From an uncultured archaeon (lineage in GTDB: Archaea; Aenigmatarchaeota; Aenigmatarchaeia; GW2011-AR5), in contig CAYJTG010000001.1 in assembly GCA_964373255.1 (NCBI GenBank), forward strand, positions 82,768 through 146,767: 64,000 nucleotides of DNA. Direction: 5' to 3'. The notes below the pieces were generated by a model. It saw only the letters and a program-made list of their open reading frames with translations. It searched no databases and had not been told where the DNA came from. The position numbers were made by a program, and so were the translations under genes. Of this stretch, positions 681-51,370 are shown one piece after another. The number at the start of each line of letters is the position of its first letter. Positions within the stretch are counted from its first letter, which is position 1.

Positions 681-2414
681 TTAACTAAAATCTGATTTTA
701 TCACGTGCTTTACAGTATTTACCCTGCCACACACGCATCGATCAGATTTCTTGTAGCTCACGATATCCTCGACACCGTAAGCCACGACCTGTCCTGGAAC
801 TGTCACGCCGTAAAGCCATTCGCTATTTTTTTCCGTCGCACGATTTCCACCAACAAGACAAGTCCTTTCCTTTTGAATCAGGTTCCTGAACCACGCGCCC
901 TGTAACCAAGATGGCTTAAGCAATTCGATACAAAGCCTCAACGTTAGGTGAACGCTCGGACACGTCTCAAATACAGTTGCAGGCTGGGTTCCTCCGTAAA
1001 ACATCTCCCTCTGTTCTTCGGAAAGATCAGGCGCATCGCCAAAATCAACAGGCAGCTTGCTGTTGAGGCACTCATAGCAAGGGCCATTTTTGCCATCAAC
1101 AACAATTGCCTTGTAGTGCGTAACGCCTGGAAATGCTGTGGGTATCACATGCTTGATGCCCTTTTTTCTCAATGCATCAGCAGCAGCAAAATTATCATCC
1201 TGGCTCCGCCCCATCGCAACAACAACAATATCAGGGCGAAATAAATCAAGATAGTGCTCGAATGTTGTTATACTGTCTGCATTGGTTGCTGATAAATTGA
1301 GATTGATTCCTGCAAAATAGTTGGCTGTATGGATATTTTTATAGATTGTACCGTGCGGAAATTCCTCTACAACCCACTCTTTGTCGTCAGCTATTCTTTC
1401 TGAAAGCTTCCGTGCAAGAACAAATGGCTTTAGCTCATTTTCTACTTCACTGACATCAACCCACTGTCGCACAGGGTTGTATATAGAAAATGGCTTGCAG
1501 TCGACAAGAATAACAGAATGAAAATAGTGCGCTATGTCTCGTGCAAGCAGACTGGCTGTACCGCATCCGATTATCATGATCTTTTTGTCGCTGAAGAATC
1601 CCAGGGGCTCGACAAATCTCCGCATAAATGTGAATCTCTTTCTGATATAATCCTTGCTTGTCAATGGATTAATGAAACTTACGTGCCAAGGCCACCGAGC
1701 GCTTCCCTTCAGAACAACGCATTTTCGCTCTTGAAAAAGAAGCCGTTCTATCTCATCTACGTTGTTTTGTGTTCCTCGAAGAAGCACTGCTTTTGCAAGC
1801 CTCATCGTCTCATCGCACGCATCCAACCAATTTATGTGTCGCTCAAGAGTCAAATCGCATGTGTCAATCATTGCTTCATGACCAAGCGTAAGAAGGAATT
1901 CTGTGAACGCTCTTGGCAAATTCTCGTTATGCACAAACACCGCAGAATTCACATCGCGATCCTTGACGAGAATGAAGCTTATAGCAGGAATATTTACCTG
2001 CTGGGCGATCTTCTCAATAAAACAAATATCCTGCACAGACCCTGCACCAATAATAAGATCGGCATTAAGAGATCTTAGCAAAGGGTCGTAGCTCGTATTT
2101 GGCCTTTCCCAGACGTAGAACTCCCACTCTTTCTCCAAGATGTTATGGGTCATAATAATGTCTCGGAGTGCATCGCAGTAGTTCTGTCCAACATATTTTT
2201 CCCCAAAGGTGTAGCAGAACATATCACCTGCTGCCACAGCGGCATCGTCAAAGAAAACAAATCTTTTGACGCCACAACGTGCAAATGCCTCAGCAACCAA
2301 AAAGGTATAAGGGAGGTTGAACAGTGCGATGGTCTTGTCGCGCAAATAATTCCCAACAACAGGAATTATCCGCTGAAAATATTCATCCAGTGTGTGCATA
2401 ACATTTCCTTTCAT
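681..2414 (-). CDS. E1-like ThiF/MoeB superfamily protein, 577 aa. Appears to have an N-terminal degenerate ThiF-like domain and a C-terminal active adenylation domain (IIGCGTASLLARDIA...LVD, PVRQ arginine, GPCYEC and CVCG zinc motifs)
   Basis: GxGxxG Rossmann motif followed by the conserved R-Q. CxxC...CxxC typical of E1 adenylating enzymes. A second, degenerate ThiF-like segment (GVKRFVFFDDAAV ... ADLIIGAGSVQD...IPAISF) lies N-terminal. Confidence 0.7.
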   Translation of the reverse strand: MKGNVMHTLDEYFQRIIPVVGNYLRDKTIALFNLPYTFLVAEAFARCGVKRFVFFDDAAVAAGDMFCYTFGEKYVGQNYCDALRDIIMTHNILEKEWEFYVWERPNTSYDPLLRSLNADLIIGAGSVQDICFIEKIAQQVNIPAISFILVKDRDVNSAVFVHNENLPRAFTEFLLTLGHEAMIDTCDLTLERHINWLDACDETMRLAKAVLLRGTQNNVDEIERLLFQERKCVVLKGSARWPWHVSFINPLTSKDYIRKRFTFMRRFVEPLGFFSDKKIMIIGCGTASLLARDIAHYFHSVILVDCKPFSIYNPVRQWVDVSEVENELKPFVLARKLSERIADDKEWVVEEFPHGTIYKNIHTANYFAGINLNLSATNADSITTFEHYLDLFRPDIVVVAMGRSQDDNFAAADALRKKGIKHVIPTAFPGVTHYKAIVVDGKNGPCYECLNSKLPVDFGDAPDLSEEQREMFYGGTQPATVFETCPSVHLTLRLCIELLKPSWLQGAWFRNLIQKERTCLVGGNRATEKNSEWLYGVTVPGQVVAYGVEDIVSYKKSDRCVCGRVNTVKHVIKSDFS

Positions 2415-2449
2415 TAGTTAAAGACTATAAGTTCATTTTCCTATTTGCT

Positions 2450-3349
2450 TTATTTAATTTTGTTCAAGAGGTTGAAGAGAAAATTATTATCGTCCAAAGA
2501 GGGTGCATTCTCACAAGGGTCAATATCACATACAACACCTTTCCCCTTCTTATAAATGCGCCCTCCGTCTTTCGGAAAGAAGGGTGAAAGTACAATAGAC
2601 ATATGACGATCTTTCCAAACAACATCGTATCGCCGCCACCCTCTTAACAATGCCGAAGCGCAAGGATTGCACCCTGCTCCGTTAAGAACCTGAAAATTCA
2701 GCTCTTCCCATAATTTTCCCTTTGTTGTATACCAAAATGGCAGCTGCCTTGCCTCTTCTGCGAAGATGTGGTCGTCTGGTATCAAAATGACATCGCCCAA
2801 GCTTGTATTGATGCCTATTTTATTCAGTGCAAAGCATCCGATGCGCCATCCATGTTCAGAAAAAGAAGGGATCATAATGAAGCTGAATGTCGTTGCAAAT
2901 CCAAGCCTGTAAGACAGATCAAAGGTTCTGTACACCGTAGCAAGATCTCCGCCAGAGAGCCATGGTTCTTGTGAGAATGGGTGGCTGTGCTGCTTTCCGA
3001 CGAGCTCTAGAAGTGGATTTCTGCTTATTATCTCCTCAATCTGATCGTTGAAAAATCTGTTAATCTTGTTGAGTTTCCTGCTCTTGAATCCGGCATGTCC
3101 TTCAGAGTAGTTCTTTGCCTCATCAGGCGGAATTGCCACGTCCATCACGATAACATGCCCGACCTCGTCAAGTCCGACCTTCTCAAGCGGTGTTTTTTTC
3201 ACATCGTGTCCAAGCTTGATATGCATAACAGGATACATGGCCGCCTCAAAAGGCCTTCCGCATTTCTGAATACCGAAATCAAAAAACTTCTTTGCCTCCT
3301 CAACTGCTTTGCTAAATGCTGATTCTATGTAAAAAATCAGAGGTTTCAT
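2450..3349 (-). CDS. JAB/MPN (JAMM) metalloprotease-domain protein with a C-terminal Cys-rich (CNPC...CDIDPC) extension
   Basis: HSHPFSQEPWLSGGD matches JAMM HxHx7-9Sx2D with an upstream Glu. The track ORF 2450..3496 begins with TTG directly after the upstream stop. The ATG at ~3349 (MKPLIFY) sits behind an AT-rich promoter-like stretch and is the likelier start. Confidence 0.65.
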   Translation of the reverse strand: MKPLIFYIESAFSKAVEEAKKFFDFGIQKCGRPFEAAMYPVMHIKLGHDVKKTPLEKVGLDEVGHVIVMDVAIPPDEAKNYSEGHAGFKSRKLNKINRFFNDQIEEIISRNPLLELVGKQHSHPFSQEPWLSGGDLATVYRTFDLSYRLGFATTFSFIMIPSFSEHGWRIGCFALNKIGINTSLGDVILIPDDHIFAEEARQLPFWYTTKGKLWEELNFQVLNGAGCNPCASALLRGWRRYDVVWKDRHMSIVLSPFFPKDGGRIYKKGKGVVCDIDPCENAPSLDDNNFLFNLLNKIK

Positions 3350-3492
3350 TGTGAAAATTCCTTTCTTAAAATTTCTTTTGTGACAATTGTAACTAGTGGC
3401 ATGAAGCGCCGCTAAGCAAAACAAGCCAAATTTTTTATGAATTTTATTTGAAAAGACGCAGGTCAAAGAAAGATAACCTGCGCCTTTTCTGA

Positions 3493-4332
3493 TCAATCAA
3501 TGTTCACGTACCGGTTGAATGCGTGCTGGAGTCTTTCACCCTTCTGAGGCCGCCCGATCGTGTTGTAGATGTCATGCATGCCGCCAACTTCCTGCAGCAC
3601 CCTATCAAGCTTGCCGACTATTTTCAAGTCAGCAATGATCAGGTCTATTCCAATGCGCGGCAACACACGGCTCTGGAGCACCATTCTCAATGGCTGTTTA
3701 TGATAGTGGGAAAAATTGCACAGCCTGTAATGGCCTCGTATATTCTCGCCTGCCGTGTGCGCAACTGGAATATCCAAGATCCTGAAGTAGTATTCTGACA
3801 GATAGGTAGACGACTCAGTCGAAGGGCCGCTCGATGCGTACACAGCAAGCACAGGAGGTGCAAAGTATATGGTATCCTTTGCATAGATGAAGTACGAATT
3901 AAAGATGTCTCTTTCATCGCCCTCATCCATCTCTTCTATGCGCTTATCCACAGACTTTAGAAATGGCCTTCCGCGCAATCGCTCGCCGTCACGCGTGCCT
4001 ATGTTGAAGACAAGCCTTCCGACGAATCCGAGCAAAGCGCTAGGATGCGGAGGGTATTCTCTTTCACAGGCAACGCACTCGAACCTGTCAGCAACTATAA
4101 TCAGGTTGCCACAGTTTGGGCATTCAGCAAATCCTTCGCCAGGGTTTGTGATGGAAGTGATAAAAGACGGGAAAAATCGCTTCATCTCCTCCATCTCTTC
4201 CACTAGGGCATCAGGATCCCGTCTTGCCCATGAGATGTGGCGTTGAATGACGTCCGGATTTACAATCCACGTTCTGGGTGACTCATCAGGGTGAACGAGC
4301 TTTTGCTGGGTGATATCCATGGCAGACCTCAT
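3493..4332 (-). CDS. Uncharacterized protein with internal zinc ribbon (CPNCG...CVAC), 279 aa; member of the E1/JAB operon
   Basis: ATGA start/stop overlap with the upstream 136-aa ORF. Stop overlaps a TTG in the JAB gene frame. Four-Cys knuckle. No family recognised by eye; it could be a divergent E2-like or adaptor protein. Confidence 0.55.
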   Translation of the reverse strand: MRSAMDITQQKLVHPDESPRTWIVNPDVIQRHISWARRDPDALVEEMEEMKRFFPSFITSITNPGEGFAECPNCGNLIIVADRFECVACEREYPPHPSALLGFVGRLVFNIGTRDGERLRGRPFLKSVDKRIEEMDEGDERDIFNSYFIYAKDTIYFAPPVLAVYASSGPSTESSTYLSEYYFRILDIPVAHTAGENIRGHYRLCNFSHYHKQPLRMVLQSRVLPRIGIDLIIADLKIVGKLDRVLQEVGGMHDIYNTIGRPQKGERLQHAFNRYVNID

Positions 4333-4739
4333 CCATAAAACTCATCCCGACGCAGATCAACGCGTTGTGTTGTGCTTGGCTTCTCATCGCCTGTGCTTGT
4401 GTCTGATGTACTCTCCTCGACCTTCATCTCTGCTACTGTATCAGGTGTTACGCTCGCGGTGACATCGACAACAACATTTCCGCCTTGATCTTTGACTACA
4501 CGACCTTCTTCTTCCACCCTCCATCCTTGGCGCCACACATATTTGTTGACATCCCATTCATAAACGTTGAATGGAGCTTCCTTGAGGCAGAGTGCAAATC
4601 GCGGAACACCGATGCCCTCAACAACGCCAAGATCTTTTCGAGGGAAGAGCTGGAACTTCGGATCGTGACAGTCGCACATCTGGCTTTTAGAAAGATCAAT
4701 TGTGCCAGTTGTGCCAGTTGCTTCTTGGAGTTTTTCCAT
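4329..4739 (-). CDS. Small protein (136 aa), first gene of the E1/JAB operon. Acidic Ser/Thr-rich C-terminal tail ending ...EFYG; candidate Ubl or E2-like partner
   Basis: ORF with ATGA coupling to the downstream gene. The protein ends in a single Gly immediately before the stop. Confidence 0.5.
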   Translation of the reverse strand: MEKLQEATGTTGTIDLSKSQMCDCHDPKFQLFPRKDLGVVEGIGVPRFALCLKEAPFNVYEWDVNKYVWRQGWRVEEEGRVVKDQGGNVVVDVTASVTPDTVAEMKVEESTSDTSTGDEKPSTTQRVDLRRDEFYG

Positions 4740-4869
4740 ATCTTACTTCTCCTTTCACAAATTAGAAATTATGAGTGTTTGGTTAATTAAAAAACAAAAT
4801 TAAAAAACAAAAATCAAAGTAGGTAGAGAAGATGGTACAAAATTTCTCTACCTACTTAGTAATACGGCA

Positions 4870-5598
4870 TCATCGCCTTCTTCGTTTGGTTCGTTTGTCC
4901 GTAAGACCCACTCCATGAGGGCCAACATCTAGACTCCCACTAAGTATTGCTGCATTTAATTCATCCGCAGTCATCTCAGTTTGAGTCGATTGTTCTGCTT
5001 CTTGTACTGCAGTGTGGTCAACATCCACTCCTGTCTTCGTTTCGGGTGCAGATACACCAACAAACTTGAACACGATTTCAGAAACAGGCGTGCCTTCAGG
5101 CTTCTTGTTGAAGTTGACCACAAGCTTCTTGTTGAGCAGGTCGAGAAGTATATTGTCAGCTTTTTCCGGATCAACACCAAGTTCTCGGACAAGAACCTGC
5201 GTTGTCAGATAGCCACGATACCTCTCGGCAATGAACATGAGCATGCGGGCGCTTGGAAACCTGTTCATCTCTATTATGAGAAGATAGATCCCAATCACCA
5301 GCAGAATTGCACTCACAACGAAAGCCCAGAAACCTACAAGCGGTATAGGATAGGGTGATCGAAAATCAGCTGCATTGACAATAGCCAGAGCAATCAGACC
5401 TATTCCCCACCATTTGACCTTCTTGCATGTTTTCATGTAGTTAGCTGGATTGCGATCGTAATCTTCATCGCGTCTTTGAAACATTTCTTTCTCCTTTCTT
5501 GTTAATGAATAATAGTTTTCTGAAGAAAAAGGGATGCGCCATCTCTTAGTAAGATCAACTAGATAACGCACCCCTTCTAAAGTAAGAGTCTTATTCAA
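4870..5598 (-). CDS. Membrane protein (two TM helices) with C-terminal soluble domain and poly-basic tail (KRTKRRRR)
   Basis: ORF with hydrophobic segments; start codon uncertain (several in-frame Met). Confidence 0.4.
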   Translation of the reverse strand: MNKTLTLEGVRYLVDLTKRWRIPFSSENYYSLTRKEKEMFQRRDEDYDRNPANYMKTCKKVKWWGIGLIALAIVNAADFRSPYPIPLVGFWAFVVSAILLVIGIYLLIIEMNRFPSARMLMFIAERYRGYLTTQVLVRELGVDPEKADNILLDLLNKKLVVNFNKKPEGTPVSEIVFKFVGVSAPETKTGVDVDHTAVQEAEQSTQTEMTADELNAAILSGSLDVGPHGVGLTDKRTKRRRR

Positions 5599-5605
5599 CT
5601 TACTT

Positions 5606-6859
5606 TTACTTCTCGTTGTCAGGCTTCATAATGCTCTTCAAGGCATTGATATTAAGCGCATCCCAAGAAAGAGCACTCGGCAAGCCCTTCGAGTCATTGA
5701 ATATGCGCAAGTTCGGGAAGGGTGTCTGTCCAGATTCATAAGCATTAGCAAGCACCCGATGACCGAACTTATAGGCTTCGAGATTCACGTCCAAGGCACG
5801 GTCTGCTTCGATTATTTTTCGCTTGTAGTAGGAGTCGCCTTCACCTTCCAGAATGTCCCTTATCTTGTTCTGCTCGGCTGCTTGTCTGTCAAACTGTGCA
5901 ACCTTAAGACCACCTTCTGCAAGTATTTCGACAACCTTTTTCTGCCTTTCAGCCCCGATAACCGTGACGATCTTTACCTTCTCGGCGTCGTATTTAGCAA
6001 TAGTGACGTTATATTTACCTTCCTCTTCTGCCTGAAGACGCTCGAATTGGGCTTGCTCGCCTCTCGCCCTTGCGGTTATGATGGCCATAATATTCGTTCG
6101 CTTGCTCGAAATTTGAGTCTCTATGCCTTCTTCGTAATCGATTTCCTTGATAACGAATTGGCTAAGGCCTATATTGTACTTTGCAAGCGGATTCTCTTTT
6201 CTCATGGGCTTGCCATCCTTATACCGCTTAACTACAACGCGCGAGCGAAGAGTCCGCTCATGTGTTGCTGGATCCTTTATAGTATCCTTTTTCTCCTCTG
6301 TTAAGTAAATACCGTACCGAACCTGATCCCAAGCCATCTCAGAGAAAGAACTTCTCTTCGTAGTGTAGCTCTCTTCTGACGCCATCAGAGCAGCTGTCAG
6401 AATAACTGCTTCTGATACAACCTGACGCACGGCTTGATTCACAAAGTTCTCATAAGAACGGAAACTCTTATGAAGACTAATTAGCATTGAATCATCATCA
6501 GGCAAGATGAAGCGAACATTACCGGTAATATTAGCCTGTCCACCGTCATTAAACCTGATAGGTATCGATTCTTCAAGGTCACCACCCTCGGCAAAGTGCT
6601 TGGAGAAGAAAAAGGTACCAGCTGCCTGATATTCGGATATCGTACCGAACATCTGCCAGTAGGTCTGTGGTCTTCGAATTGTGCTCATATCACCTGTTAC
6701 GGCTTCCTGCTTGACATGATATTTACTAAGATCAACTGTTTCCCAGATAAACGCTGAGAAAATGAATAAAATTACGCCAAGTACGCTGAATAACCAAAAA
6801 AGGGCCTTTCTGAGCGTGCTTCGACGTCCAGTATCAACTGAACTACCTAATGTAGCCAT
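5606..6859 (-). CDS. SPFH/band-7 (stomatin/flotillin-like) domain membrane protein
   Basis: N-terminal TM then an SPFH-like core and a long coiled-coil. Paralogous to the next gene (IRFNDGGQANITGNVRFILP vs VRFNDGGIAKISGNVRFRIP). Confidence 0.65.
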   Translation of the reverse strand: MATLGSSVDTGRRSTLRKALFWLFSVLGVILFIFSAFIWETVDLSKYHVKQEAVTGDMSTIRRPQTYWQMFGTISEYQAAGTFFFSKHFAEGGDLEESIPIRFNDGGQANITGNVRFILPDDDSMLISLHKSFRSYENFVNQAVRQVVSEAVILTAALMASEESYTTKRSSFSEMAWDQVRYGIYLTEEKKDTIKDPATHERTLRSRVVVKRYKDGKPMRKENPLAKYNIGLSQFVIKEIDYEEGIETQISSKRTNIMAIITARARGEQAQFERLQAEEEGKYNVTIAKYDAEKVKIVTVIGAERQKKVVEILAEGGLKVAQFDRQAAEQNKIRDILEGEGDSYYKRKIIEADRALDVNLEAYKFGHRVLANAYESGQTPFPNLRIFNDSKGLPSALSWDALNINALKSIMKPDNEK

Positions 6860-6922: not shown

Positions 6923-8206
6923 CTACTTACTCGATACGTCTTGCTTACCAGGCTTAAATGTAATCGGCTTGAACGTGAGATCAAGACCAAGATCTTTCTG
7001 CACGTGCTCATTGATAGCCAACAAAAGGCTATAACCGTTGTTATCGGCCTTATTGTTTCCAACCTCGATCTCTGGCGTTGGTCTGTGCTTGGCATAAGCA
7101 ACAGCCCAGTAACCGATTACTTCTTTATAAGTCTGAATGCGCTGCGCCAGTGCGCCATCTGCAAGCATAACCTTTCTGCGCTTTTCTGCTTCACCGTCAC
7201 CTTTCAGGATCTGCTCCATCTTGTACTGCTCTGCCTTCTGTCGGTTGAGTTTTGCAACTGATAATCGTGCCTGGGAAATTGTTATAGCAGAGTCTCTCTG
7301 CTGTTCAGCAACCACGATATCTCGTTGCATATCAACCCTGGCTGTATACTCAGCCTCGGTGACAGCTTTTTTTCCTGTCTCTTCAGCGGTTTTCTTATCC
7401 TGAATGGCCTTATCGGCAGCCGCCTTTGCAGTCGCAATAGCCTGCAAGGCCTCGCGTTTAGCCTTGATCTGGTTGAGTGTGGCTTGTTCGTAATCGATTT
7501 CCTTGATTATGAACTGGGCAATCTGAATACCATAATCTTCCAGCGGGTTTTCTTTTCTCACAGACTTACCATCAGGACCTCTCATTATATCAACTATTTC
7601 TTTCCTGACGGGTTCGCCTGTATCAGGATCTTTATCGAGTGTGATCCTCGATTCGGTCAGATAAACGCCATCCATAACTTGATCGCGGGACATCTCGGAG
7701 AATGCACTTCTCTTAGTCGTGTATGCTTCCTCAGAAGACATAAGTGCGGCTGTAAGGATAACTGATTCATTGACAAGCTGGAGAATGCATTCATGTACCA
7801 TCTCTTTATTCCCGCGGAAGTGCTTATGTATCTTAAACAAATACTCATCCACACGGGGTATTCTGAAACGGACGTTTCCGGATATCTTCGCTATGCCACC
7901 ATCGTTGAATCTGACATCAACCCTACTGTCGTTGTCGTCGTCCACCTTTACAAAATCATAGGCGTCCTCGATCTTGTACGTGTAGACATCTGCAAGCATT
8001 TTACGATACATGCCAGGATCGTAGCGCGCAGAAAGGCTGCCAGTGTAAAATGCCTCGACAATCTGGTAGTAGCCGTTGTTGTTGTCGCCGATCATGTTCA
8101 TACCAATACCAAGAACGGCAAGACCAACAACTGTCCATACCGCGATTCGAATGAATCGCTGGATGTTGCGAGGCACGTCGAATGTATCAAAGAATTTTTG
8201 TAACAT
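6923..8206 (-). CDS. SPFH/band-7 (flotillin-like) domain membrane protein, tandem paralog
   Basis: Same architecture and motifs as 5606..6859 (VILTAALMSSEEAYTTKRSAFSEM). Confidence 0.65.
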   Translation of the reverse strand: MLQKFFDTFDVPRNIQRFIRIAVWTVVGLAVLGIGMNMIGDNNNGYYQIVEAFYTGSLSARYDPGMYRKMLADVYTYKIEDAYDFVKVDDDNDSRVDVRFNDGGIAKISGNVRFRIPRVDEYLFKIHKHFRGNKEMVHECILQLVNESVILTAALMSSEEAYTTKRSAFSEMSRDQVMDGVYLTESRITLDKDPDTGEPVRKEIVDIMRGPDGKSVRKENPLEDYGIQIAQFIIKEIDYEQATLNQIKAKREALQAIATAKAAADKAIQDKKTAEETGKKAVTEAEYTARVDMQRDIVVAEQQRDSAITISQARLSVAKLNRQKAEQYKMEQILKGDGEAEKRRKVMLADGALAQRIQTYKEVIGYWAVAYAKHRPTPEIEVGNNKADNNGYSLLLAINEHVQKDLGLDLTFKPITFKPGKQDVSSK

Positions 8207-18807: not shown

Positions 18808-20811
18808 TTATAGGTAAATATTCTCGAATGCGCCTGTGCCCATGAACTCATCGGCAAGCTGCACAAATATCTTCATGCCGCCCTTCTTTTTTGCGTACCG
18901 GCACGCCTGCTGCAGCAGTACGTTTTTCAAGGCTTCGTTTGCGCAAATATAATAGCCGTTGTTGTGGAGTGCCCTGTAAATTGGGTCGCGATCGTAATTC
19001 GTTATAAATGAAAGCTTTAACTCCTTATCGCCCTTTTTAAGCATTACTAATCCGCCTGAATCAGCCGCCTGCCCAACCTCGTAGCCGGATGACTCGAACT
19101 TCCATATTATGTGCTTTTTGTCCATTTTTTCCTGCCTTGGGGCGGTTTTTTCTATTTTATTGAATACACCCTCGCCGATGTCTGTCAAAAAGTAATAAAC
19201 GGCCTTGGTTTTCTTCACCTTCACGCCTTTCTGATCCACCAAACCAAGCTTTAGCAAAAGCTTCATGTTGTCGTTGAACGTCGAGCCGGACATCTTCAGT
19301 GCCTTATAGAGCTGCGACGTATAGAGGCCTTTGCCAGTGCCTATGGCTGTGATTATCTTCATCTCGCTTTCATTCAAGCCGTTGACATCAAAATCCACGT
19401 CAACATTCGCCCTGCCGATAGTTTTTATCTTGTCCCGCATCAGCTCGACGACGTCTTTATCGGTTATCTTCCCTTTCTCTATTTCCAGCTTTTCGAACTC
19501 AGCAAGGAACGGCTTTGAAAATTCTGAATTTCTTGCCAGCATAAATCCGTGCCCCACGGGCAGCCTTCGCAAATAAGAGCCTTCCTCATTATAGTCAAGC
19601 CCGAGCATGTTCGCAGCGTCCATTATGTCTGACGACTGCTTTGTGTCTAGTCCTAAATTCATGTATATGTGCGTTGACGTATTGCCCATAGCCGGATAGC
19701 TCACCAATGAAGGATGCTGGTCGATATAAATTATGCCCAGCCCCAATTCACGAACCTCACGGAACAATAAATCAATGACCGTCTCTGACCCGAGCTTCTT
19801 CGATTTTTCCCTGTTCAGAACGTGATGCGCCTCCTCAAGGATTATGGCGCCTGCTAATTTTTCCCTGCTCTTGCCTGCGAGCATCCAGTCGCGTATCCAC
19901 TGCAGCACAATCTCGATGAAAAACGTCTTGTCGTTTGTCGACAACGCGTCCAGTTCGAATATTGTGATCTTGCCCGGTGAAAATAATTGCGACAGATCAG
20001 AGAAGTCCGTATCAAAAACATCGTTCATTTCACGGAAGCAGAGCGATTCCAACGGACGCATTGCTGTTGCGACCCAGTTTCTTTCCCTTGACGATCCATG
20101 GCTATGGGAAAGGATTTCAACTGCGTCTTTCAGGTCAGCCAGCCTTGGGTTCTGCTTATTTTCGTACAAATCATTCATTGCCATCATAATTATGTGCTGC
20201 CCGCCCCCAAGCAGCCAGTAGGCGTGGTCGAATATGGATGCGAACTCCTTTATCCACTGCGACGCCGTTATGTCCTTGGGCGGCTTCAACGGGTTGAACC
20301 TGAACGGCGAGACATCACGACCGATCGTGTAAACCTCTATCCTGTCCCTTAATTCTGTTTGAAGTAGGTCACGGTAATTTCTTTTCGAGAAGTCAAATAT
20401 AATTACAGGTATATTCATCTCCGCCAAACTCTTCGCAAGCATAAAGGAGACGTTTGTCTTGCCGTACCCGGAAGACCCGAATATTCCTATGTGCGTAAGC
20501 AATGATTCTGCCTTTATTAAAAGTGGAAACAGTCTTTTTCTGCCGTAGTTGACGTGACCCAGCTTTATTTCCCCGCTGATCACTTCTCTTTCAGGCGGCT
20601 CGATGAGAACCGTGTCCCTCAATTCCTTGTCCGAGTTGACAGCCGCTTTCAGTATGTCGACCATCTCAATTATTCTTTTCCTCGTCTCCTCATCCGCCAA
20701 TAGATAAGTCTTTAACAACCGCTCGGCGTTCTGCCTGCCCATGACAGGCGTCATCTTCTTGATCTCGTCGCTTATCAGCTTTTCCTGGTAGTACATATTA
20801 ATCACGACCAA
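18808..20811 (-). CDS. HerA/FtsK-superfamily (DUF87-type) P-loop ATPase with C-terminal winged-helix and extra domain
   Basis: Walker A GSSGYGKT, Walker B IILEEAHH, 667 aa. C-terminal wHTH-like GKGLYTSQLYKALKMSG. Confidence 0.65.
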   Translation of the reverse strand: MVVINMYYQEKLISDEIKKMTPVMGRQNAERLLKTYLLADEETRKRIIEMVDILKAAVNSDKELRDTVLIEPPEREVISGEIKLGHVNYGRKRLFPLLIKAESLLTHIGIFGSSGYGKTNVSFMLAKSLAEMNIPVIIFDFSKRNYRDLLQTELRDRIEVYTIGRDVSPFRFNPLKPPKDITASQWIKEFASIFDHAYWLLGGGQHIIMMAMNDLYENKQNPRLADLKDAVEILSHSHGSSRERNWVATAMRPLESLCFREMNDVFDTDFSDLSQLFSPGKITIFELDALSTNDKTFFIEIVLQWIRDWMLAGKSREKLAGAIILEEAHHVLNREKSKKLGSETVIDLLFREVRELGLGIIYIDQHPSLVSYPAMGNTSTHIYMNLGLDTKQSSDIMDAANMLGLDYNEEGSYLRRLPVGHGFMLARNSEFSKPFLAEFEKLEIEKGKITDKDVVELMRDKIKTIGRANVDVDFDVNGLNESEMKIITAIGTGKGLYTSQLYKALKMSGSTFNDNMKLLLKLGLVDQKGVKVKKTKAVYYFLTDIGEGVFNKIEKTAPRQEKMDKKHIIWKFESSGYEVGQAADSGGLVMLKKGDKELKLSFITNYDRDPIYRALHNNGYYICANEALKNVLLQQACRYAKKKGGMKIFVQLADEFMGTGAFENIYL

Positions 20812-24147: not shown

Positions 24148-24314
24148 CGGGCCTGGAGGGATTCGAACCCCCGACTTCCACGTCCGAAGCGTGGCGCTAT
24201 GGACCCTTTTGGTCTATCCTGGTTTCTCTACCATCCCTAATATTTTATGAAGTTTCTTGGGGTTCACCAAGACCTTCTTTTCAAAGAAGGGATTGGTAAC
24301 TAAGCTACAGGCCC
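24148..24314 (-). tRNA. tRNA-Arg (anticodon TCG) with a ~95-nt non-canonical intron in the D-loop/D-arm
   Basis: Acceptor GGGCCTG/CAGGCCC + discriminator G. Anticodon arm CCACG-CTTCGGA-CGTGG. Variable loop AAGTC. T-arm GGGGG-TTCGAAT-CCCTC. Exon 1 is GGGCCTGTAGCTTAGTT and exon 2 starts ...GGTCCATAGCG. No encoded CCA. Confidence 0.6.
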
Positions 24315-27989: not shown

Positions 27990-28018
27990 TTAAATACTAT
28001 AGAATACTATAGAATACT
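27990..28018. promoter_or_regulatory. Three direct repeats (tagaatacta) immediately upstream of the antitoxin gene; probable operator
   Basis: atactatagaatactatagaatactatgg is visible directly. Confidence 0.4.
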
Positions 28019-28237
28019 ATGGTAACAACAATACAGATAAGCGAGAAGTTGAAAGAAAGGCTGGAAAAGAGGAAGCTTTACAAAAATGAGACTTACGAAG
28101 ATGTTCTTTTGGATTTGTTGGAAGACAGTATGGAATTATCCGATGAGACCAAGAAAAATATAGCACAAGCAGAAAAAGAGATCAAAGAAGGTAAAGGCAA
28201 AACTCTTGAACAGGTGAAGAAGGAGTTAGGTCTATGA
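28019..28237 (+). CDS. Type II antitoxin (RelB/ParD-like), 72 aa
   Basis: Small ORF overlapping the toxin gene by 4 nt (ATGA). Confidence 0.5.
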   Translation: MVTTIQISEKLKERLEKRKLYKNETYEDVLLDLLEDSMELSDETKKNIAQAEKEIKEGKGKTLEQVKKELGL

Positions 28238-28491
28238 CGTATGAAATAATAATCCTTCCTGTTGCCCAGCGCCAGTTAGAGAGGCTTGAAAAAAATGTTC
28301 AAGAAAGAATACTTAATTCTTTGGAAAGAATAAAAATTCGCCCGTATGATTTTGTTAGGAAACTCACAGGCTCGCCATTTTATAAATTACGTGTGGGTGA
28401 CTATAGGATTATTCTGAAAATTTTAAATGAGACCATGATAATTTATGTAGTGGAAGTTGGCAATAGAAAAAACATATACAAAAATATCTGA
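28234..28491 (+). CDS. relE: RelE/ParE-family type II toxin
   Basis: ...FYKLRVGDYRIILKILNETMIIYVVEVGNRKNIY matches the RelE consensus (YRLRVGDYRIIY...IGHRK.Y). Confidence 0.7.
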   Translation: MTYEIIILPVAQRQLERLEKNVQERILNSLERIKIRPYDFVRKLTGSPFYKLRVGDYRIILKILNETMIIYVVEVGNRKNIYKNI

Positions 28492-29055
28492 ATCATTTTT
28501 TTATATTTTTCTTCTTTTTCTTTTCAAAGCTCTTGAGAAGGATTGGGAGATCGTCCACGTTACTAACGACGTGGTCAAAGAAATTCATAGCGAGCCTCGA
28601 AAATGCAAAAAAATAATACACGTCTTCAGAGACCTCAATATAACGGTCAAAACGATATACGCGAAGAGGATTGGCTAGCTTACCTGCACGCCACTAGGCA
28701 TTATACGCATGGCGACAGTTTCCTGAACAATCATCCGCTGGCGTCAACGCAGGCGTAGGCGTTGCCTGAACCTGATAATTGTGAAACACTTAGATTATTA
28801 TTGACATCTAAGCGACCGCCTATCGAAACATCTGGTATCAATTTTATCAGAGGAGTCGTTCCTGGGCGCCCTCCGTCAGCGACTTCTCCGAATTGCTTCG
28901 CAATTCTCGACTTTTTCTTTCAGAAAAAGGGACTTAACAGCGCTTATACGGTTCCGCCTTCGCTCTGCCGCTCGGCTCCACTCCAATTTTCTCTACGAGA
29001 AAACTGCGCATAAGCCCGATGTTGTACGCAATCGGTCTCTCGGGCGCACTGAATA

Positions 29056-29742
29056 TTACTTCAATATATGATCTACAGTTGCATCAGCAAAAATCTTCAT
29101 TGTATCGTATATGTTGAGTTTATGTTGTGGTATTAGAAGCTGTAAATCTGTACAAGCTAATATTACATTTTTAACTCCTTTTTCTTCGAAATTGTCTATT
29201 ATTTTAAGAAGCTCTTGTCTATCCTTATTTGCATGTCTGTTCAAAACAATATTGTTTATTATCTTTCCTATTTTAGCTTGGTCAAACTCATCAGGTAAAA
29301 CTTGCTCTATACATTCTTTTTTTAGGGCATCCTCATATAGTTTATTTTTTATAATACTTGGTGTTGCTAAAATACCGACTTTTGATATTTTTTTGTTTTT
29401 TAGAAATTTGACAGTTTCTTCTATAATGCTTAATACAGGTATTTTTACTGATTTTCTAATCTCTTTAATAAATATATGAAGTGTATTACATGGCATAACT
29501 AAAAAATCAGCACCAGCTTTTTCTAACATTTTTGCAGCTTTAGTGAGATACGGAATATATCTGTCTTCTCCTCTTGCTTCTACCTGTGCTTCTTTTTCAA
29601 TTTTGTAACTTTGTGGGATATTCCAGATTAAAATTCCGGGTCTTCTCTCTTTATTTTTTTGATAACAACCGAAACTTAATTCTAAATAAAACTCAGCTGT
29701 TGTTTCAGGTCCTAAACCGCCAATTATGCCAACTGTTTTCAT
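29056..29742 (-). CDS. Aspartate/glutamate racemase family protein
   Basis: GGLGPETT, MPCNTLH, ILACTDL catalytic-Cys motifs. Markedly AT-rich compared with its neighbours. Confidence 0.65.
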   Translation of the reverse strand: MKTVGIIGGLGPETTAEFYLELSFGCYQKNKERRPGILIWNIPQSYKIEKEAQVEARGEDRYIPYLTKAAKMLEKAGADFLVMPCNTLHIFIKEIRKSVKIPVLSIIEETVKFLKNKKISKVGILATPSIIKNKLYEDALKKECIEQVLPDEFDQAKIGKIINNIVLNRHANKDRQELLKIIDNFEEKGVKNVILACTDLQLLIPQHKLNIYDTMKIFADATVDHILK

Positions 29743-29927
29743 ACAACTAGTTTTATATTCAATTCTTTATAAAACTTCTCAAAAAAACGCGCCCGAGACC
29801 GACTCTTCGGAAGCTTCGCTTCCTCGTCCTCACTTTATTCGGAGCCTCACTGTTTGCTTACAATCCTAAAAAAGAAAAAGTAAAAATATGCTTTTGGTCT
29901 GAAGTAAGCTTCACTATTCTAAGAAAG

Positions 29928-31070
29928 TTATGGTATATAGTTTACCGCTCCATATGCATCTACTCTGCCCCAACCGTAACTTGAATCCCAACCAGACTTT
30001 CCTAGATCCTTAGCTGTTTTGAACAATGCATTCTCTATCTGAGATACTGTATATTCAGGATGAGCAAATTTTATTAGCGCCGCTGTTCCACTAACCATTG
30101 GAGTTGCCATGCTGGTGCCGCTGGCAGTGGCATAAGAAGTACCGAGCCATGTTGAAAACAGACTAACGCCGGGTGCCGTCACGTCAACAGCACTGCCTCT
30201 TCCTGAAAATCTTGCAATTTTATCAGAGCTATTAACTGCGCCAACTGTTGTGGAATAGCTTATGCAACCTGGAATTGAAACGCCCGCGCCTCCACTATTG
30301 CCTGCTGCAACAATAACAGCAACATTTCTGTCTCTTGCATATTTTATAGCATTAGTTAAACTTGGTAAAACATTATCGCAGAATCCTTTGTAAGTATAAG
30401 GCTGTGATGTGCCGAGGCTCATGCTTATCCCATCTGCATTAAAATCATCTGGTGTTCCATAAATTCCATCAGGTCCATCTACTGCCCAGTAAATTGCAGC
30501 AACAACATCGCTAAAGTATCCTGAACCGGAAGAAGATAAAACTTTTCCAGCAACAATTCCAGCATCTGGACTAACTCCCTTAGCAGAAGCCAAAACTCCG
30601 TCAGCAGTTATAATTCCAGCGACATGACTCCCATGGCCATTATCATCAAACGGATCATCATCATTATTAACAAAATCTTTTCCTCCAAGATAGCTCGAAC
30701 TTAATTCTGGATGATTATAATTGTAACCTGTGTCAAGGATAACAATTTTCCTTCCTGCTCCGTTGTTACTAGATGACTGCACTGTGTCTGCTCTTATCTG
30801 TTTATTAGCGTTTGAATCCATTGCAAACACTTTAATATCTTCTTGTAAACCTAATGAAGAAGCAACATCAGCTGAACAAACCAGGGCCTTTAGTGTTCTG
30901 GCCTCCCTAACTTTCTCACAACCCTTTGCTAATGCATCTGAAACTTCTTTATCTGTATGAGCGATTACTCTTACTTTCTCTTTGCCTTGTGCTGAAACCA
31001 CCACAACTGACGATACTAACAATAATAATATCATCACAACATAAACCCAGCTTTTAATTTGTATTTTCAT
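29928..31070 (-). CDS. Secreted subtilisin-like serine protease (peptidase S8)
   Basis: Catalytic triad motifs ILDTGYNYNHPE (Asp), HGSHVAGI (His), GTSMATPMVSG (Ser). Start placed at MKIQIKSW, which begins a signal peptide. The longer track ORF overlaps aspS. Confidence 0.75.
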   Translation of the reverse strand: MKIQIKSWVYVVMILLLLVSSVVVVSAQGKEKVRVIAHTDKEVSDALAKGCEKVREARTLKALVCSADVASSLGLQEDIKVFAMDSNANKQIRADTVQSSSNNGAGRKIVILDTGYNYNHPELSSSYLGGKDFVNNDDDPFDDNGHGSHVAGIITADGVLASAKGVSPDAGIVAGKVLSSSGSGYFSDVVAAIYWAVDGPDGIYGTPDDFNADGISMSLGTSQPYTYKGFCDNVLPSLTNAIKYARDRNVAVIVAAGNSGGAGVSIPGCISYSTTVGAVNSSDKIARFSGRGSAVDVTAPGVSLFSTWLGTSYATASGTSMATPMVSGTAALIKFAHPEYTVSQIENALFKTAKDLGKSGWDSSYGWGRVDAYGAVNYIP

Positions 31071-37119: not shown

Positions 37120-38355
37120 TCATATCGCCACAGGGCTCGAGCCGGCGTGCCACGACTGTCGCGGGCGGACGCGGATCTTATAGATACGCTCCGAGTTGTC
37201 GTCCAGCACGATAGCCGCGCCCTTAACCTTTGGCAGCTCGTTGATGTATTTCCCTATGCCGAATATCAGGTACGTCTGCATGATTCCCTCCAGCGCCTCG
37301 ACGTCTGATTTTGCCGTCATGCTGTGCGATATCACGATGTCAGCCTGCGTGAGCGCATCAGGGCTGAGCTTGTTTGGCTGCTGGCTGATAAGGACAAGCG
37401 TTATCCCCGGCTGGCGGCCTTCTTTCACAACGGTGTTCAGGATATCTGTGGCAGCTGTTTTTCCAGTGTCCGGCAAAAAATTATGGGCCTCGTCGATAAA
37501 TATCCATGGAATGGGCGTCCTTTTTGCCGTTGACACCTCTATGATAGACTGCTCTTCCTTTCTGCGCGCCTTTGTCCTGTCTACAAAAATTTTCCTGCAC
37601 ACGATCCCGATAAGAAGCGCCCTCACTCCTTGTGGTGTCAAACTAACGTCGAGCACTGTGGACTTTCCTGGAACAAGTATGTCAGGTATCTTCTCATCGC
37701 CAAAGATGCCCCAGGATTCGGCTGCGTCAAACCTGTTTTGCAACGCGAGCTTCTCGTGCTCAAAGCCTTCCTCTTTTGAGATAGCAGAAATTATAGTATC
37801 GATGCCAAATTCCCTGTCGCCAAGTTTTTTGTACACCCTCTGGAGCAGTATGCCCAACGGGTCGTTCTGATTTATTGCAAAGACCGAGAGCCAGTCTTCC
37901 GCGGTCATCTGCGACGGCTTCACGGAGAAGACGCCGTCGTACTCAACGCCCGCCTCTGAGAACATTTCGGCCTGGCCCTCCGGAACGTAGACGTTCACGT
38001 CAAACCCCTTTGGCTTCATGCCCCACTCGTTGAGCAGCACAGCCTCGCGCTCGTTCGGCGTCTTCATGGTCCAGAATATTCCCTGCGTGTCGACGATGAG
38101 CGAGCACAGGTTGTTTCTTACGTTGGCCTGCATCATCTGCATCTCCTCGACCATGACGCCTGCATCAAACGACTTGCCGGTGCCTCTCTTGCCCGTGATT
38201 ACTATCAGGTGCGGCCGCAGGGCGTCGAGAAAAAGCGGTGTTGTGAGGTGCGTCTCATCGCCTGTCCCGACGATATGCTTCCCAAGAAAGAGCGTTCCAG
38301 TATCGCCGAACCTCTTTGCGTCTTCATCGTCACGGCCAACAACAATCTCTGTCAT
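37120..38355 (-). CDS. DUF87/HerA-like P-loop ATPase (second copy in window)
   Basis: Walker A GKRGTGKS, Walker B IFIDEAHNF. Start placed at MTEIVVGRDD; the track ORF extends to 38466 into repeat B. Confidence 0.6.
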   Translation of the reverse strand: MTEIVVGRDDEDAKRFGDTGTLFLGKHIVGTGDETHLTTPLFLDALRPHLIVITGKRGTGKSFDAGVMVEEMQMMQANVRNNLCSLIVDTQGIFWTMKTPNEREAVLLNEWGMKPKGFDVNVYVPEGQAEMFSEAGVEYDGVFSVKPSQMTAEDWLSVFAINQNDPLGILLQRVYKKLGDREFGIDTIISAISKEEGFEHEKLALQNRFDAAESWGIFGDEKIPDILVPGKSTVLDVSLTPQGVRALLIGIVCRKIFVDRTKARRKEEQSIIEVSTAKRTPIPWIFIDEAHNFLPDTGKTAATDILNTVVKEGRQPGITLVLISQQPNKLSPDALTQADIVISHSMTAKSDVEALEGIMQTYLIFGIGKYINELPKVKGAAIVLDDNSERIYKIRVRPRQSWHAGSSPVAI

Positions 38356-38444
38356 GAATATCACAAGTAAACTGAACAAAAATCTCCCTTTTCTTTGGGG
38401 CTTACAAAGACCTTTCTTTTGAAAAAGAAAGGGATTTGTATTGT

Positions 38445-38620
38445 ATTTATACATGGTGAATATCACTGTTTTGAAGCAGTGGTATTATAGTATTCACCTG
38501 TATAATACAATCCACGAATACATGGAGAATCGAAGATTCTCCTGTACAGGTGAAGCGTAGCTTCACCATGTATTATCTGTGGTATTTCAAAAAAATACCA
38601 CCATCTTTAGATTGTGGATT
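38445..38620. repeat. Repeat family B copy 2 (inverted relative to copy 1), immediately upstream of the DUF87 ATPase gene
   Basis: About 90% identity to 21780..21960 in reverse complement. Confidence 0.7.
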
Positions 38621-49651: not shown

Positions 49652-50188
49652 ATGGCAGCACTTTTTCAAAAAGAAATGTATAGGATAATAGAATTTATTT
49701 TGGATAGTACATCAAAGACAACAAAGGTAAGGGAACTGGCAAGGCTGCTGAATCTAAGCCCTGCTCACGTCAGCAGAACTCTGAAAACTCTGGAGAGGCA
49801 CAAAATTATTAAAAATGGTTCTGTGGATTTGTCCAATCCTTACGTGAAGGCATTAAAGATCTTTTTTAATATACAAAAACTGACTGACAGCAATGTTATA
49901 AGGATATTAAAAAAAATAGAACCAGCAGGTGCGGGTATTTATGGCTCGTGGGCGAATGGGACGAATAACGAAACTAGTGATGTTGATATTTGGATTAAAG
50001 TAGAAAAAAAGGCAAACGAAACCAAAATAGCGGTTTTATCGAGTAAGATGAGAAAAGCCCTCCGTAGAAACATACAATTATTGGTGCTCACGCCAGAGAG
50101 GATAGGCAGGCTAAAAAGAGATGACCCGATTTTCTATTATTCGCTCGTCTTTGGCTCTATAAACATTTATGGTGAATCCCTTGAATGA
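49652..50188 (+). CDS. Minimal nucleotidyltransferase (MNT) antitoxin-like protein with N-terminal wHTH
   Basis: GIYGSWANGTNNETSDVDIW (GSx9-13DxD) nucleotidyltransferase motif. Confidence 0.6.
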   Translation: MAALFQKEMYRIIEFILDSTSKTTKVRELARLLNLSPAHVSRTLKTLERHKIIKNGSVDLSNPYVKALKIFFNIQKLTDSNVIRILKKIEPAGAGIYGSWANGTNNETSDVDIWIKVEKKANETKIAVLSSKMRKALRRNIQLLVLTPERIGRLKRDDPIFYYSLVFGSINIYGESLE

Positions 50189-50606
50189 ATTGGAAAAATG
50201 TTTTGAAAAAGGTTTGATAAGAAAAACGCTTCCATCAATAGAAAAGTCGTTGAAGGGTGTTAAGAAAGCTAAAAAATGGCTGGAAGAGGCTAAGAAGAAT
50301 TTTGAATTTGGTCTTTTTGACAGCTGTTTGGTTTCTTCCTATTCCGCTATGTTTCACGTCTCAAGGGCTTTGTTGATGAAGGATGGATTCAGGGAGAAAA
50401 GCCATTACTGTGTTGTAAGATACATTGAAGAAAAATATGTCAATACAAAAAAGCTAAACCATATTATTGTAGATCTATTGGACAGGTTCAGAGAGCTCCG
50501 GCATGAAGACCTCTATGAACTGGACTTCTTTGCAACAAAAGACGACGCAAAAGAAGCGATCAAGAATGCGGAGATCATCATAAAAGAAATAGAAAAGCTT
50601 ATTTGA
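50169..50606 (+). CDS. HEPN-domain protein (toxin partner of MNT)
   Basis: RELRHEDLY (Rx4-6H) HEPN motif; 20-nt overlap with the MNT gene. Confidence 0.6.
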   Translation: MVNPLNELEKCFEKGLIRKTLPSIEKSLKGVKKAKKWLEEAKKNFEFGLFDSCLVSSYSAMFHVSRALLMKDGFREKSHYCVVRYIEEKYVNTKKLNHIIVDLLDRFRELRHEDLYELDFFATKDDAKEAIKNAEIIIKEIEKLI

Positions 50607-50608
50607 AT

Positions 50609-50762
50609 TTTCTTCACTTCCCGCCCAGCACCGCGACATTAATACCAAGCTTCTTCTCAATCGCCGCCAGCCTTGATTTCAGATCACTCATCTCTGACCT
50701 GAGCTCTGTGTTCTCCGCCTTCAGCTTTGCTAGCTCGTCAAGCGCCTGCTTGAAGAAAAAGT
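50609..50762 (-). repeat. Copy A of the giant-gene 3'-end repeat (encodes ...KQALDELAKLKAENTELRSEMSDLKSRLAAIEKKLGINVAVLGGK* with no start codon)
   Basis: About 99% identical over ~115 bp to 52443..52557. Lacks an ATG, and abuts the stop of the DUF2283-like gene. Confidence 0.7.
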
Positions 50763-51277: not shown

Positions 51278-51370
51278 TTATTTCTCCTGTATAATCATTT
51301 TACAGATACGTATAAAAAATAGCAGGTACTTCTCAAAATTATGCCGATGACACAATGTATTTTGTTTTCT

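Follow-up and report, generated by a model that had tools for sequence, protein, structure and literature searches.

A probable ubiquitination-like E1/E2/JAMM cassette with a putative zinc-binding modifier and a conserved link to a Clp unfoldase in an uncultured archaeon

To our knowledge, the conjugated protein in characterised prokaryotic systems that combine an E1, an E2 and a JAB peptidase is either a ubiquitin-like protein (Ubl) of the beta-grasp fold or a CD-NTase, and all of these systems act in phage defence. Here we describe a gene cassette that has the enzymes of such systems and a different small protein. It lies at the left end of a 64,000-nucleotide (nt) stretch of DNA, called the window throughout, from an uncultured archaeon (Aenigmatarchaeota, GW2011-AR5; assembly GCA_964373255.1, contig CAYJTG010000001.1, positions 82,768 to 146,767 of the forward strand). 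The cassette encodes, on the minus strand, a small protein of 136 amino acids (aa), an E2-like protein of 279 aa, a JAB peptidase with a JAMM motif, an E1-like protein of 577 aa and a Clp ATPase; an earlier note, made from the letters of the window alone, had picked out the first four genes as a candidate ubiquitin-like conjugation system. We conclude that the cassette is probably a prokaryotic ubiquitination-like conjugation system, without precedent both in its putative modifier and in its conserved link to unfoldases. In a full-text search of the literature we found no account of an E1/E2/JAB cassette that is paired with Clp or Hsp70; the closest mention is of another Ubl system, which is associated with FtsH/ClpN and occurs in conflict operons (PMC7159879).

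Among the described systems the cassette is nearest to BilABCD (Type I/II). Both have the order modifier, E2, JAB, E1, with E1 and E2 as separate proteins (PMC10557695, PMC11601596), and in both the E1 consists of an inactive adenylation domain (IAD) followed by an active one (AAD), with a four-Cys zinc site split between crossover loop and C-terminus and an N-terminal Arg in the inactive domain. Both also contain a JAMM peptidase, which is able to trim the modifier in BilABCD and may do so here. Unlike that of BilABCD, the putative modifier of the cassette is not a beta-grasp protein and ends in Tyr instead of Gly. The E1 likewise lacks the alpha-helical CYS insertion of ~80 aa and an invariant catalytic Cys, and its active half is closer in sequence to ATG7 than to canonical E1s, BilD being absent among its profile matches in the PDB. 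The E2 of the cassette has a zinc-ribbon insert, a Clp gene belongs to the cassette, and the genomic context is not defence-like.

The cassette is a member of neither CBASS nor Bub. With Cap2/Cap3 of type II CBASS it shares an ATG7-like adenylation domain, a JAB partner and a candidate conjugated protein that lacks the ubiquitin fold and would be activated at its C-terminus; the protein that Cap2 itself conjugates is likewise something other than a Ubl (PMC10557695). In contrast to type II CBASS, the cassette has separate genes for E1 and E2, its E1 forms a tandem pseudo-dimer rather than a homodimer, and no locus contains a CD-NTase or effector. The Bub (6E/DUF6527) systems resemble the cassette in having a diverged E1 without catalytic Cys and with a conserved Tyr in the crossover loop (PMC11601596). 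However, the E2 of the cassette keeps Cys and His where Bub has Ser, there are no Ubl–E2 or JAB–E1 fusions, and no BubE/DUF6527 protease was seen among the Pfam matches of the cassette and its neighbours; the Bub modifier, moreover, is a beta-grasp protein ending in Gly.

Two further systems are more distant. The Pup–proteasome system of Actinobacteria (Pup, PafA/Dop, Mpa) is a functional analogy only, in that a small, largely disordered non-ubiquitin tag is encoded next to the AAA+ unfoldase expected to recognise it. Pup is attached by the glutamine-synthetase-like PafA/Dop through a side-chain carboxylate, with no E1, E2 or JAMM peptidase, and is coupled to Mpa and the 20S proteasome, not to Clp. 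Sampylation (SAMP/UbaA/HvJAMM1) and the Caldiarchaeum ubiquitin operon share with the cassette a JAMM peptidase and, on the reading proposed below, a prokaryotic E1-dependent tagging route, and have a link to proteolysis (PMC4895103). In contrast to the small protein studied here, the SAMPs and Caldiarchaeum ubiquitin have the beta-grasp fold and terminate in GG. The E1 of sampylation, UbaA, has a single domain of ~270 aa and needs no E2, the operon of Caldiarchaeum contains a RING E3, and neither system has a Clp partner. The suspicion in the earlier note that the gene set matches no characterised type is borne out: this is a conjugation-type cassette of E1, E2 and JAMM peptidase that departs from defining features of Bil, CBASS and Bub alike.

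The 577-aa protein belongs to a small family. We found 28 homologues among 5.8 billion clustered proteins, all of 550–600 aa and 34–42% identical, and read the conservation of the family from an alignment of 27 sequences. Invariant or nearly so in the C-terminal half are G283xG285T286xS288, D305, K307, N313, R316, Q317, K329 and DDN (406–408). The nucleotide loop is GCGTAS (residues 283–288; 1551–1568), the arginine motif is NPVRQ (residues 313–317; 1464–1478), which is the form found in ATG7, and four Cys make up a zinc site, two in CYEC (1068–1079; CYxC, 446/449) and two in CVC (729–737; CxC, 560/562). The three elements that define an E1-like adenylation domain, namely the nucleotide loop, an (N)xxRQ arginine motif and a Mg-binding Asp of the DxxDN type, are all present. 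The intact adenylation site claimed in the earlier note was in this sense found, with NPVRQ, DDN and CYEC in place, but the loop is of the form GxGxxS and not GxGxxG, and the last metal-binding pair is CxC, not CxxC. Pfam ThiF matches residues 277–454 with E = 4.6e-5, under its gathering score. Searched against the PDB, the family profile hit ATG7 (1.4e-5), MccB (2e-4) and MoeB (3e-3), and also a ThiF-type protein, TcdA and Cap2; by profile and motifs, the active half is closest to ATG7. Single-sequence searches with the E1 gave no PDB match and no match in phage genomes.

The N-terminal half of the E1 aligns with the C-terminal half in hhalign over 223 columns (probability 87%, E = 4e-6). Both halves match the same segment of the PADLOC E1–E2 models, the N-terminal one through residues 40–130, the matches of the E1 to these models being marginal (E of 4e-4 or weaker). 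The N-terminal half has none of the nucleotide loop, NPVRQ and DDN but keeps an invariant Y12 and R15. Judged from these alignments, the E1 is an IAD–AAD intramolecular pseudo-dimer, in agreement with the earlier reading of its N-terminal half as a degenerate second ThiF domain. In BilD, the one active site receives an Arg from the N-terminus of the inactive domain (PMC10557695); here, Arg15 of the inactive half probably completes the single ATP site.

A mobile CYS-domain insertion is missing from this E1: the crossover loop (450–473) has ~24 residues, none of them Cys. Apart from the zinc ligands, no Cys column reaches 90% conservation in the 27 aligned sequences, and an invariant catalytic Cys was not found in this alignment. 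C519, considered as the catalytic residue, was rejected; its conservation is 89%, and three sequences of the family have V, S or T in its place. The crossover loop does contain an invariant Asp457 and an invariant Tyr473 (996–998). Because the Cys-less Bub E1 forms an oxyester through a Tyr of its crossover loop (PMC11601596), Tyr473 may, by analogy, do the same here.

The second enzyme of the cassette had been suspected to be an E2. Word-indexed searches with the E2-like and the 136-aa proteins returned three matches and one match, respectively, and the two families were reached through genomic neighbours, a search of representatives and exact look-ups; an exhaustive search of 1.84 billion representatives brought the E2-like relatives to 68. 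The family profile of the E2-like protein matched nothing in the PDB, and sequence libraries showed the zinc ribbon alone. Its structure model, which is confident, was informative: the structural matches comprised UFC1 (6.7), Ubc13 (6.7), Citrobacter BubB (6.6), a CdnG-associated E2 (6.4), UBE2O, Cap2 (5.0) and Atg3 (4.3), and 38 of the top 40 fall in the UBC/UEV/RWD superfamily. As judged from this model, the 279-aa protein has a UBC-superfamily fold.

His192 and Cys205 (3718–3759, minus strand) are conserved in at least 90% of 38 E2-like sequences. In the model, a strand (201–204) leads to Cys205 and is followed by a loop and a long helix (215–238), as in UBC enzymes, and the protein thus shows the fold, the Cys ~8–13 residues past an HPN-type His and the subsequent long alpha-2 helix that characterise them. 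A weak hhalign alignment with UBE2D2 places His192 and Cys205 in register with His75 and Cys85. The model and this conservation make the His192–Cys205 pair a candidate E2 active site. The zinc ribbon noted earlier (CPNCG...CVAC) is indeed present; its ligands C71, C74, C86 and C89 (4066–4122, minus strand) are inserted in the N-terminal part, where the model has beta-hairpins, C71, C86 and C89 are conserved in at least 90% of sequences, and Pfam zinc-ribbon matches are weak.

The 136-aa protein, the putative modifier, is a small zinc-binding protein outside the ubiquitin fold. The members of its family share one order of elements: a variable N-terminus, CxC[C/H]xP ... A[LI]C, a region rich in beta structure, a low-complexity linker that is either acidic or Gly-rich, and a tail. 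C22, C24 and C51 are invariant, as is the tail motif RP..[HR][VT][DN]LxxDx[FY]Y, which ends in the window as VDLRRDEFY (4335..4361, minus strand) followed by the codon for Gly136. In the 24 family members that we read, the motif is followed by 0–12 variable residues. Five proteins end exactly at the Tyr; extensions in the others include G, R, S, I, RS, RI, SN, QP, RAP, GAR, LGS, SRGR and HRASSTL. The small protein of locus L012 has a still longer tail, probably through read-through or a frameshift. Gly136 is one of these variable extensions and the Tyr135 before it is invariant, so that the ...FYG end to which the earlier note drew attention is not the conserved one. We propose Tyr135 as the mature C-terminus. 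A conserved end with ragged extensions, encoded beside a JAMM peptidase, resembles by analogy the precursors of ubiquitin and Ubls; fold and terminal residue differ. A beta-grasp Ubl, one of the folds the earlier note would have looked for, was rejected, the protein having an all-beta CxC...C domain instead and no GG end. Pfam gave the DUF3659 motif alone, in 2 of 12 members. PHROG and NCBIfam contained nothing for the small protein, the E2-like protein, the JAB protein or the E1, and PADLOC nothing for the first three of these.

The JAMM motif of the third protein, HSHPFSQEPWLSGGD, is encoded at 2945..2989 on the minus strand and upholds, at motif level, the assignment made from the sequence earlier. 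E35, H121, H123, S132 and D135 are invariant in 15 sequences and form the complete pattern E...HxHx(7-8)SxxD. HSHPFSQEPWLSGGD resembles the motifs of Rpn11 and CSN5 (HSHPGFGCWLSGVD), and in a weak hhalign alignment with Rpn11 (E = 0.002, probability 13%) the five residues are in register. The additional C-terminal domain had been described as Cys-rich; its cysteines turned out not to be conserved, and the conserved motifs are RGWRRY and LPPDFP. We also observed a weak hhalign match (E = 0.0012, probability 19%) between this domain (residues ~185–299; 2450–2900, minus strand) and the 'flap' region of the E2-like family. The domain may be a non-catalytic UEV/RWD-like domain.

A fifth gene, absent from the earlier note, starts at 620 on the minus strand and exits the left edge of the window; on the identical contig L019 it is complete and encodes 764 aa. 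Pfam recognises AAA, AAA_lid_9, AAA_2 and ClpB_D2-small, which gives two AAA+ modules. Its alignment to the ClpA model is a single stretch, and that to the ClpB model falls into two parts that skip the middle domain; all scores are below the equivalog cut-offs. For its D2 module, the closest PDB match is Bacillus subtilis ClpC (3.7e-36), in which VGF aligns with the IGF that follows sensor-1. An IGF-type loop of this kind docks ClpP in ClpA, ClpC and ClpX; ClpB is without it. The loop is kept in all 11 homologues in which our script located it, and was identified by eye in the window copy. With two AAA+ modules, no long ClpB middle domain and an [LIV]-G-[FL] loop past the D2 sensor-1, the protein has the make-up of a class I Clp/Hsp100 of the ClpP-partner type (ClpA/ClpC/ClpE), and its sequence points to a ClpC/ClpA-like unfoldase with a ClpP-docking-type IGF loop.

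Genomic contexts were collected from exact-protein look-ups, a scan of 185,579 species genomes and a metagenome scan, and were tabulated by open reading frame (ORF) and hidden Markov model. The cassette was present in 14 of the 185,579 species genomes, and the metagenome scan added 15 loci; its hosts are Parcubacteria, DPANN archaea and Myxococcota. The order small protein, E2, JAB, E1 was found in 21 of the 22 loci with enough upstream sequence. Of 28 loci, 21 have a Clp/Hsp100 gene directly downstream of the E1 gene, and 23 have one no more than 7 kb away. The closest relatives of the cassette in the window are a Woesearchaeota locus (L016) and another archaeal locus (L007). A scan of viral contigs for the E1 gave no homologue. 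The loci contain no CD-NTase, effector or sulfur-transfer gene, and no gene beyond the cassette is universally conserved; flanking genes are housekeeping genes and are syntenic within subclades. The earlier observation that no CD-NTase, MoaD/ThiS or cofactor genes adjoin the cassette thus extends beyond the window, and a consistent co-occurrence with MoaD/ThiS-type genes, which would have spoken against conjugation, is not seen in the flanks of the homologous loci. An apparent 817-aa E2 fusion (P0054, L022:7001-9454) was discarded, since the assembly of the small-protein, E2-like and JAB genes there is high in GC and frameshifted.

Distant E2-like relatives of ~225–237 aa led to three sister operons (L021:3231-9384, L023:1723-7678 and L025:5026-9423). 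These encode an Hsp70, an isochorismatase-like protein, an FN3/CxCC protein, a homologous CxCC small protein of 76–87 aa, an E2-like protein and a tandem E1, with no JAB gene and no Clp. A hybrid locus (L024:3160-13451) combines Hsp70 with the small protein, E2, a JAB-like protein, E1, Clp and isochorismatase. A chaperone or unfoldase is thus a recurring partner of this E1/E2 pair. The sister small proteins end exactly at the position of Tyr135 in four of four loci (IDLSRESYS, IDLSLYGYS, IDLSRSGYA and IDPTTEDFA). The place of the C-terminus is thus fixed, which is what one would expect if its carboxylate has to reach an adenylation site.

The coordinates of the cassette and of the genes upstream of it are listed in Table 1. 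The four minus-strand genes of the earlier note exist as ORFs of 136 aa (4329–4739), 279 aa (3493–4332) and 577 aa (681–2414), together with a JAB ORF (2450–3496). They had been described as chained by start–stop overlaps. One such overlap stands, the ATGA at the junction of the 136-aa and 279-aa genes, where the gene caller on the identical public contig picks an ATG 12 nt downstream. The second, TGATTG, depends on a TTG start of the JAB gene that we reject as spurious: the 49 residues that it adds are missing in 14 of 14 homologues. The conserved start is the ATG at 3349, preceded by AAGGAA, which gives a protein of 299 aa and leaves a spacer of 143 nt (3350–3492) between the E2-like and JAB genes. 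The JAB and E1 genes, too, are 35 nt apart and do not overlap. The cluster is compact and operon-like but, given the spacer and this gap, not a chain of four coupled genes. The spacer folds with -40 kcal/mol (z = -4.5), and none of 200 shuffled sequences folded as well; spacers of 14–183 nt are also present at this junction in homologues from the candidate phyla radiation (CPR) and DPANN. Its hairpin is a candidate attenuator or terminator between the genes for the small protein and E2 and those for JAB, E1 and Clp.

Table 1. Position of the cassette, its intergenic hairpin and the genes upstream of it in the window (all coordinates are window positions).
Feature	Position	Strand	Basis or remark
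Clp ATPase of ClpC/ClpA-like double-AAA+ type, first 206 codons	1..620	-	translation; NCBIfam and Pfam matches
E1, C-terminal half: active adenylation domain (AAD)	681..1664	-	Pfam ThiF, family profile, conserved motifs
E1, N-terminal half: inactive adenylation domain (IAD)	1665..2414	-	hhalign, PADLOC; alternative ATG start possible at 2399
JAMM/MPN+ metallopeptidase, 299 aa, with extra C-terminal domain of ~110 aa	2450..3349	-	invariant motif residues
16-bp hairpin followed by U tract, directly 3' of the E2-like stop codon	3450..3489	-	folding
E2-like (UBC-fold) protein, 279 aa, with zinc-ribbon insert	3493..4332	-	alternative ATG start at 4320 gives 275 aa
Small putative modifier, 136 aa	4329..4739	-	all-beta CxC[C/H]...C domain (~20-95), acidic disordered linker, conserved C-terminal tail
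Two-transmembrane (two-TM) protein with basic poly-Arg C-terminus, 242 aa from TTG (gene caller: 204 aa)	4870..5598	-	synteny, 9 loci
Two paralogous SPFH/Band-7 genes	5606-6859 and 6923-8206	-	Pfam Band_7; synteny, 8 loci

The SPFH pair and the two-TM gene stand upstream of the cassette in CPR/DPANN loci only and are absent from the Myxococcota loci. The position of the cassette behind two SPFH genes and a membrane-protein gene hints that in CPR/DPANN the pathway acts at the membrane or has a link to membrane microdomains.

Our observations, namely the domains and folds assigned to E1, E2 and Clp, the conserved catalytic motif of the JAB protein, the C-terminal architecture of the small protein and the linkage of the genes, lead us to propose the following pathway. 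The JAMM peptidase would trim the variable extension of the small protein to expose the ...D-x-F-Y carboxylate, and could also reverse conjugation. The pseudo-dimeric E1, whose fold and motifs we identified, would then adenylate this C-terminus as its proposed substrate, with Arg15 contributing. Since the E1 has no invariant Cys outside the zinc site, the activated tail would pass to Cys205 of the E2 either directly or through Tyr473, and the E2 would join the small protein to target proteins. Finally, the ClpC/ClpA-like hexameric unfoldase, which is associated with the cassette and carries the IGF-type loop, would recognise the tag via its Clp N-domain and unfold or extract the tagged protein, and it could feed ClpP. 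We regard E1/E2-dependent conjugation of the small protein as likely, and give the entire chain, from tagging with the small protein to the hand-off to Clp, an even chance. That the cassette represents a third, independently evolved tagging route to an unfoldase beside ubiquitin and Pup, with a zinc-binding non-ubiquitin tag, a Cys-less ATG7-like tandem E1, a zinc-ribbon E2 and a ClpC-like ATPase or Hsp70, is an idea that we put forward tentatively and with more doubt than confidence.

Several points weigh against this pathway. Every biochemical step in it is a proposal drawn from sequence, models and gene linkage. A small protein that is not a beta-grasp protein and ends in Tyr is unprecedented as an E1 substrate, and it could instead be an adaptor or a target. 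Foldseek retrieved the same families with the E2-like model, with E-values that are not significant. The assignment of the JAB protein is made at the level of the motif together with the weak hhalign score: none of the 15 members has a Pfam match, and PDB profile, PADLOC and PHROG searches gave none either. As for the unfoldase, a search with Escherichia coli ClpP as the query found no ClpP gene in the window or at a distance of up to 10 kb from any locus, and ClpP is rare in archaea. Three loci also fit poorly. An archaeal locus (L009) has small protein, E2, JAB and E1 (2931-6813; the small gene was found by eye) and no Clp in the fetched sequence, the sole Clp match of L034 lies 7 kb from the E1, and L039 has an E1 that is 30% identical, with no partner genes and no Clp in the fetched sequence. 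No E3, RING or obvious target gene is conserved across the loci.

The strongest alternative is an anti-phage or conflict system of the Bil, CBASS or Bub kind, in which the small protein would be placed on a phage protein or a host effector and Clp would be an effector or regulator that, for example, unfolds phage assemblies or activates a toxin. Characterised bacterial E1/E2/JAB operons are all defence systems (PMC11601596, PMC10557695), and the gene order here is identical to that of BilABCD. FtsH ternary conflict systems described by Aravind join ClpN domains with a Ubl-conjugation set (PMC7159879). The sparse and patchy occurrence over bacteria and archaea, in 14 of 185,579 species, is what one might expect of such a system; the finding of 68 E2-like representatives in 1.84 billion proteins suggests horizontal transfer, and the SPFH genes match a phage protein family (phrog_11908, at 1e-52 and 1e-60). 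However, the defence models matched neither the small protein nor E2 nor JAB, the E1 having weak E1–E2 matches alone, and in the flanks that we inspected we saw neither defence genes nor CapH/CapP- or CapK-type regulators, none being conserved across loci. The neighbours are instead a penicillin-binding protein, a phosphoesterase, GatAB, an aspartyl-tRNA synthetase (AspRS) and FtsZ, and within Myxococcota subclades the flanks are syntenic, unlike variable defence islands. The cassette is also kept in very small CPR/DPANN genomes, is absent from viral contigs and is accompanied by no conserved toxin-like effector. On balance we consider a defence function unlikely, though it is the alternative that fares best.

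In another explanation, the small protein is not a transferable tag. It could be the end product or carrier of a C-terminal chemistry, as in MccB/microcin C or LysW, or a Clp adaptor or substrate, with E1 and E2 modifying another protein such as Clp or the membrane protein. The profile match of the E1 to MccB, which modifies a peptide C-terminus other than Gly, and the missing invariant catalytic Cys would suit this explanation. It leaves no role for a UBC-fold protein with conserved His and Cys that is strictly co-inherited with the small protein, as MccB- or LysW-type chemistry has none; nor are an ATP-grasp protein, an exporter or biosynthetic enzymes conserved nearby, and neither Clp nor the other cassette proteins have a conserved C-terminus. 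We judge it improbable, distinctly more so than a defence function. A last alternative is a pathway like those of ThiS, MoaD, CysO and QbsE, serving a sulfur carrier or a cofactor, in which the JAMM peptidase would process the carrier. It would account for an adenylation domain that is E1-like and, like those of MoeB and ThiF, has a zinc site, and a JAMM peptidase does accompany the carriers of the CysO and QbsE systems, but it is already largely refuted and hardly credible, given a small protein that is not beta-grasp and has no GG end, flanks in which no rhodanese, cysteine desulfurase, MoaE, ThiG or related genes occur, and the conservation of E2 and a Clp ATPase instead.

The rest of the window shows where the cassette resides. 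Its long ORFs are nearly all minus-strand ones, among them those for GatA, GatB, a class II Asp/Asn-tRNA synthetase, FtsZ, a ZIP transporter and a subtilase. Weak matches to DUF families of archaea, together with the loci most closely related to the cassette, point to a DPANN archaeon as the probable host. Because it encodes GatA, GatB, the Asp/Asn-tRNA synthetase, FtsZ and the like, the window is part of a cellular chromosome; a phage origin was rejected on the same genes (GatA, GatB, AspRS and FtsZ). GC skew is negative over the whole window, and patches of low GC content lie at 28001–30000 (0.36) and 50001–52000 (0.38). Two genes encode ATPases of the HerA/DUF87 type (18808–20811 and 37120–38466, minus strand), one with a weak MarR-like match. 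A tRNA-like element of 59 nt (24148–24206, minus strand) scored 35.2 bits against the Rfam tRNA model. It is without the whole D-arm, has the anticodon loop CUUCGGA (UCG) and was not called by ARAGORN; no other tRNA was found in the 64 kb. An ORF of 3575 aa (52443–63170, minus strand) with CBM_4_9 and a C-terminal Peptidase_S74 domain (endosialidase intramolecular chaperone) probably encodes a huge surface fibre protein.

The cassette departs from the known E1/E2/JAB systems in three ways: its putative modifier has an unrelated fold and ends in Tyr, its E1 lacks a catalytic Cys, and it is tied to Clp here and to Hsp70 in its relatives. If the small protein is conjugated as proposed, E1 enzymes would have a broader substrate chemistry than is known at present. 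Should the tag guide proteins to the unfoldase, the cassette would be a bacterial and archaeal analogue of the logic of the ubiquitin–proteasome system, built from E1/E2 parts. The cassette is compact and its reconstitution in vitro is possible, which makes the idea directly testable. It bears on how ubiquitin signalling came to be coupled to AAA+ unfoldases and on proteostasis in the tiny cells of CPR and DPANN. If true, it would mean that in CPR, DPANN and Myxococcota E1/E2 enzymology has served proteostasis linked to chaperones or proteases, with a modifier that is not of the beta-grasp fold.

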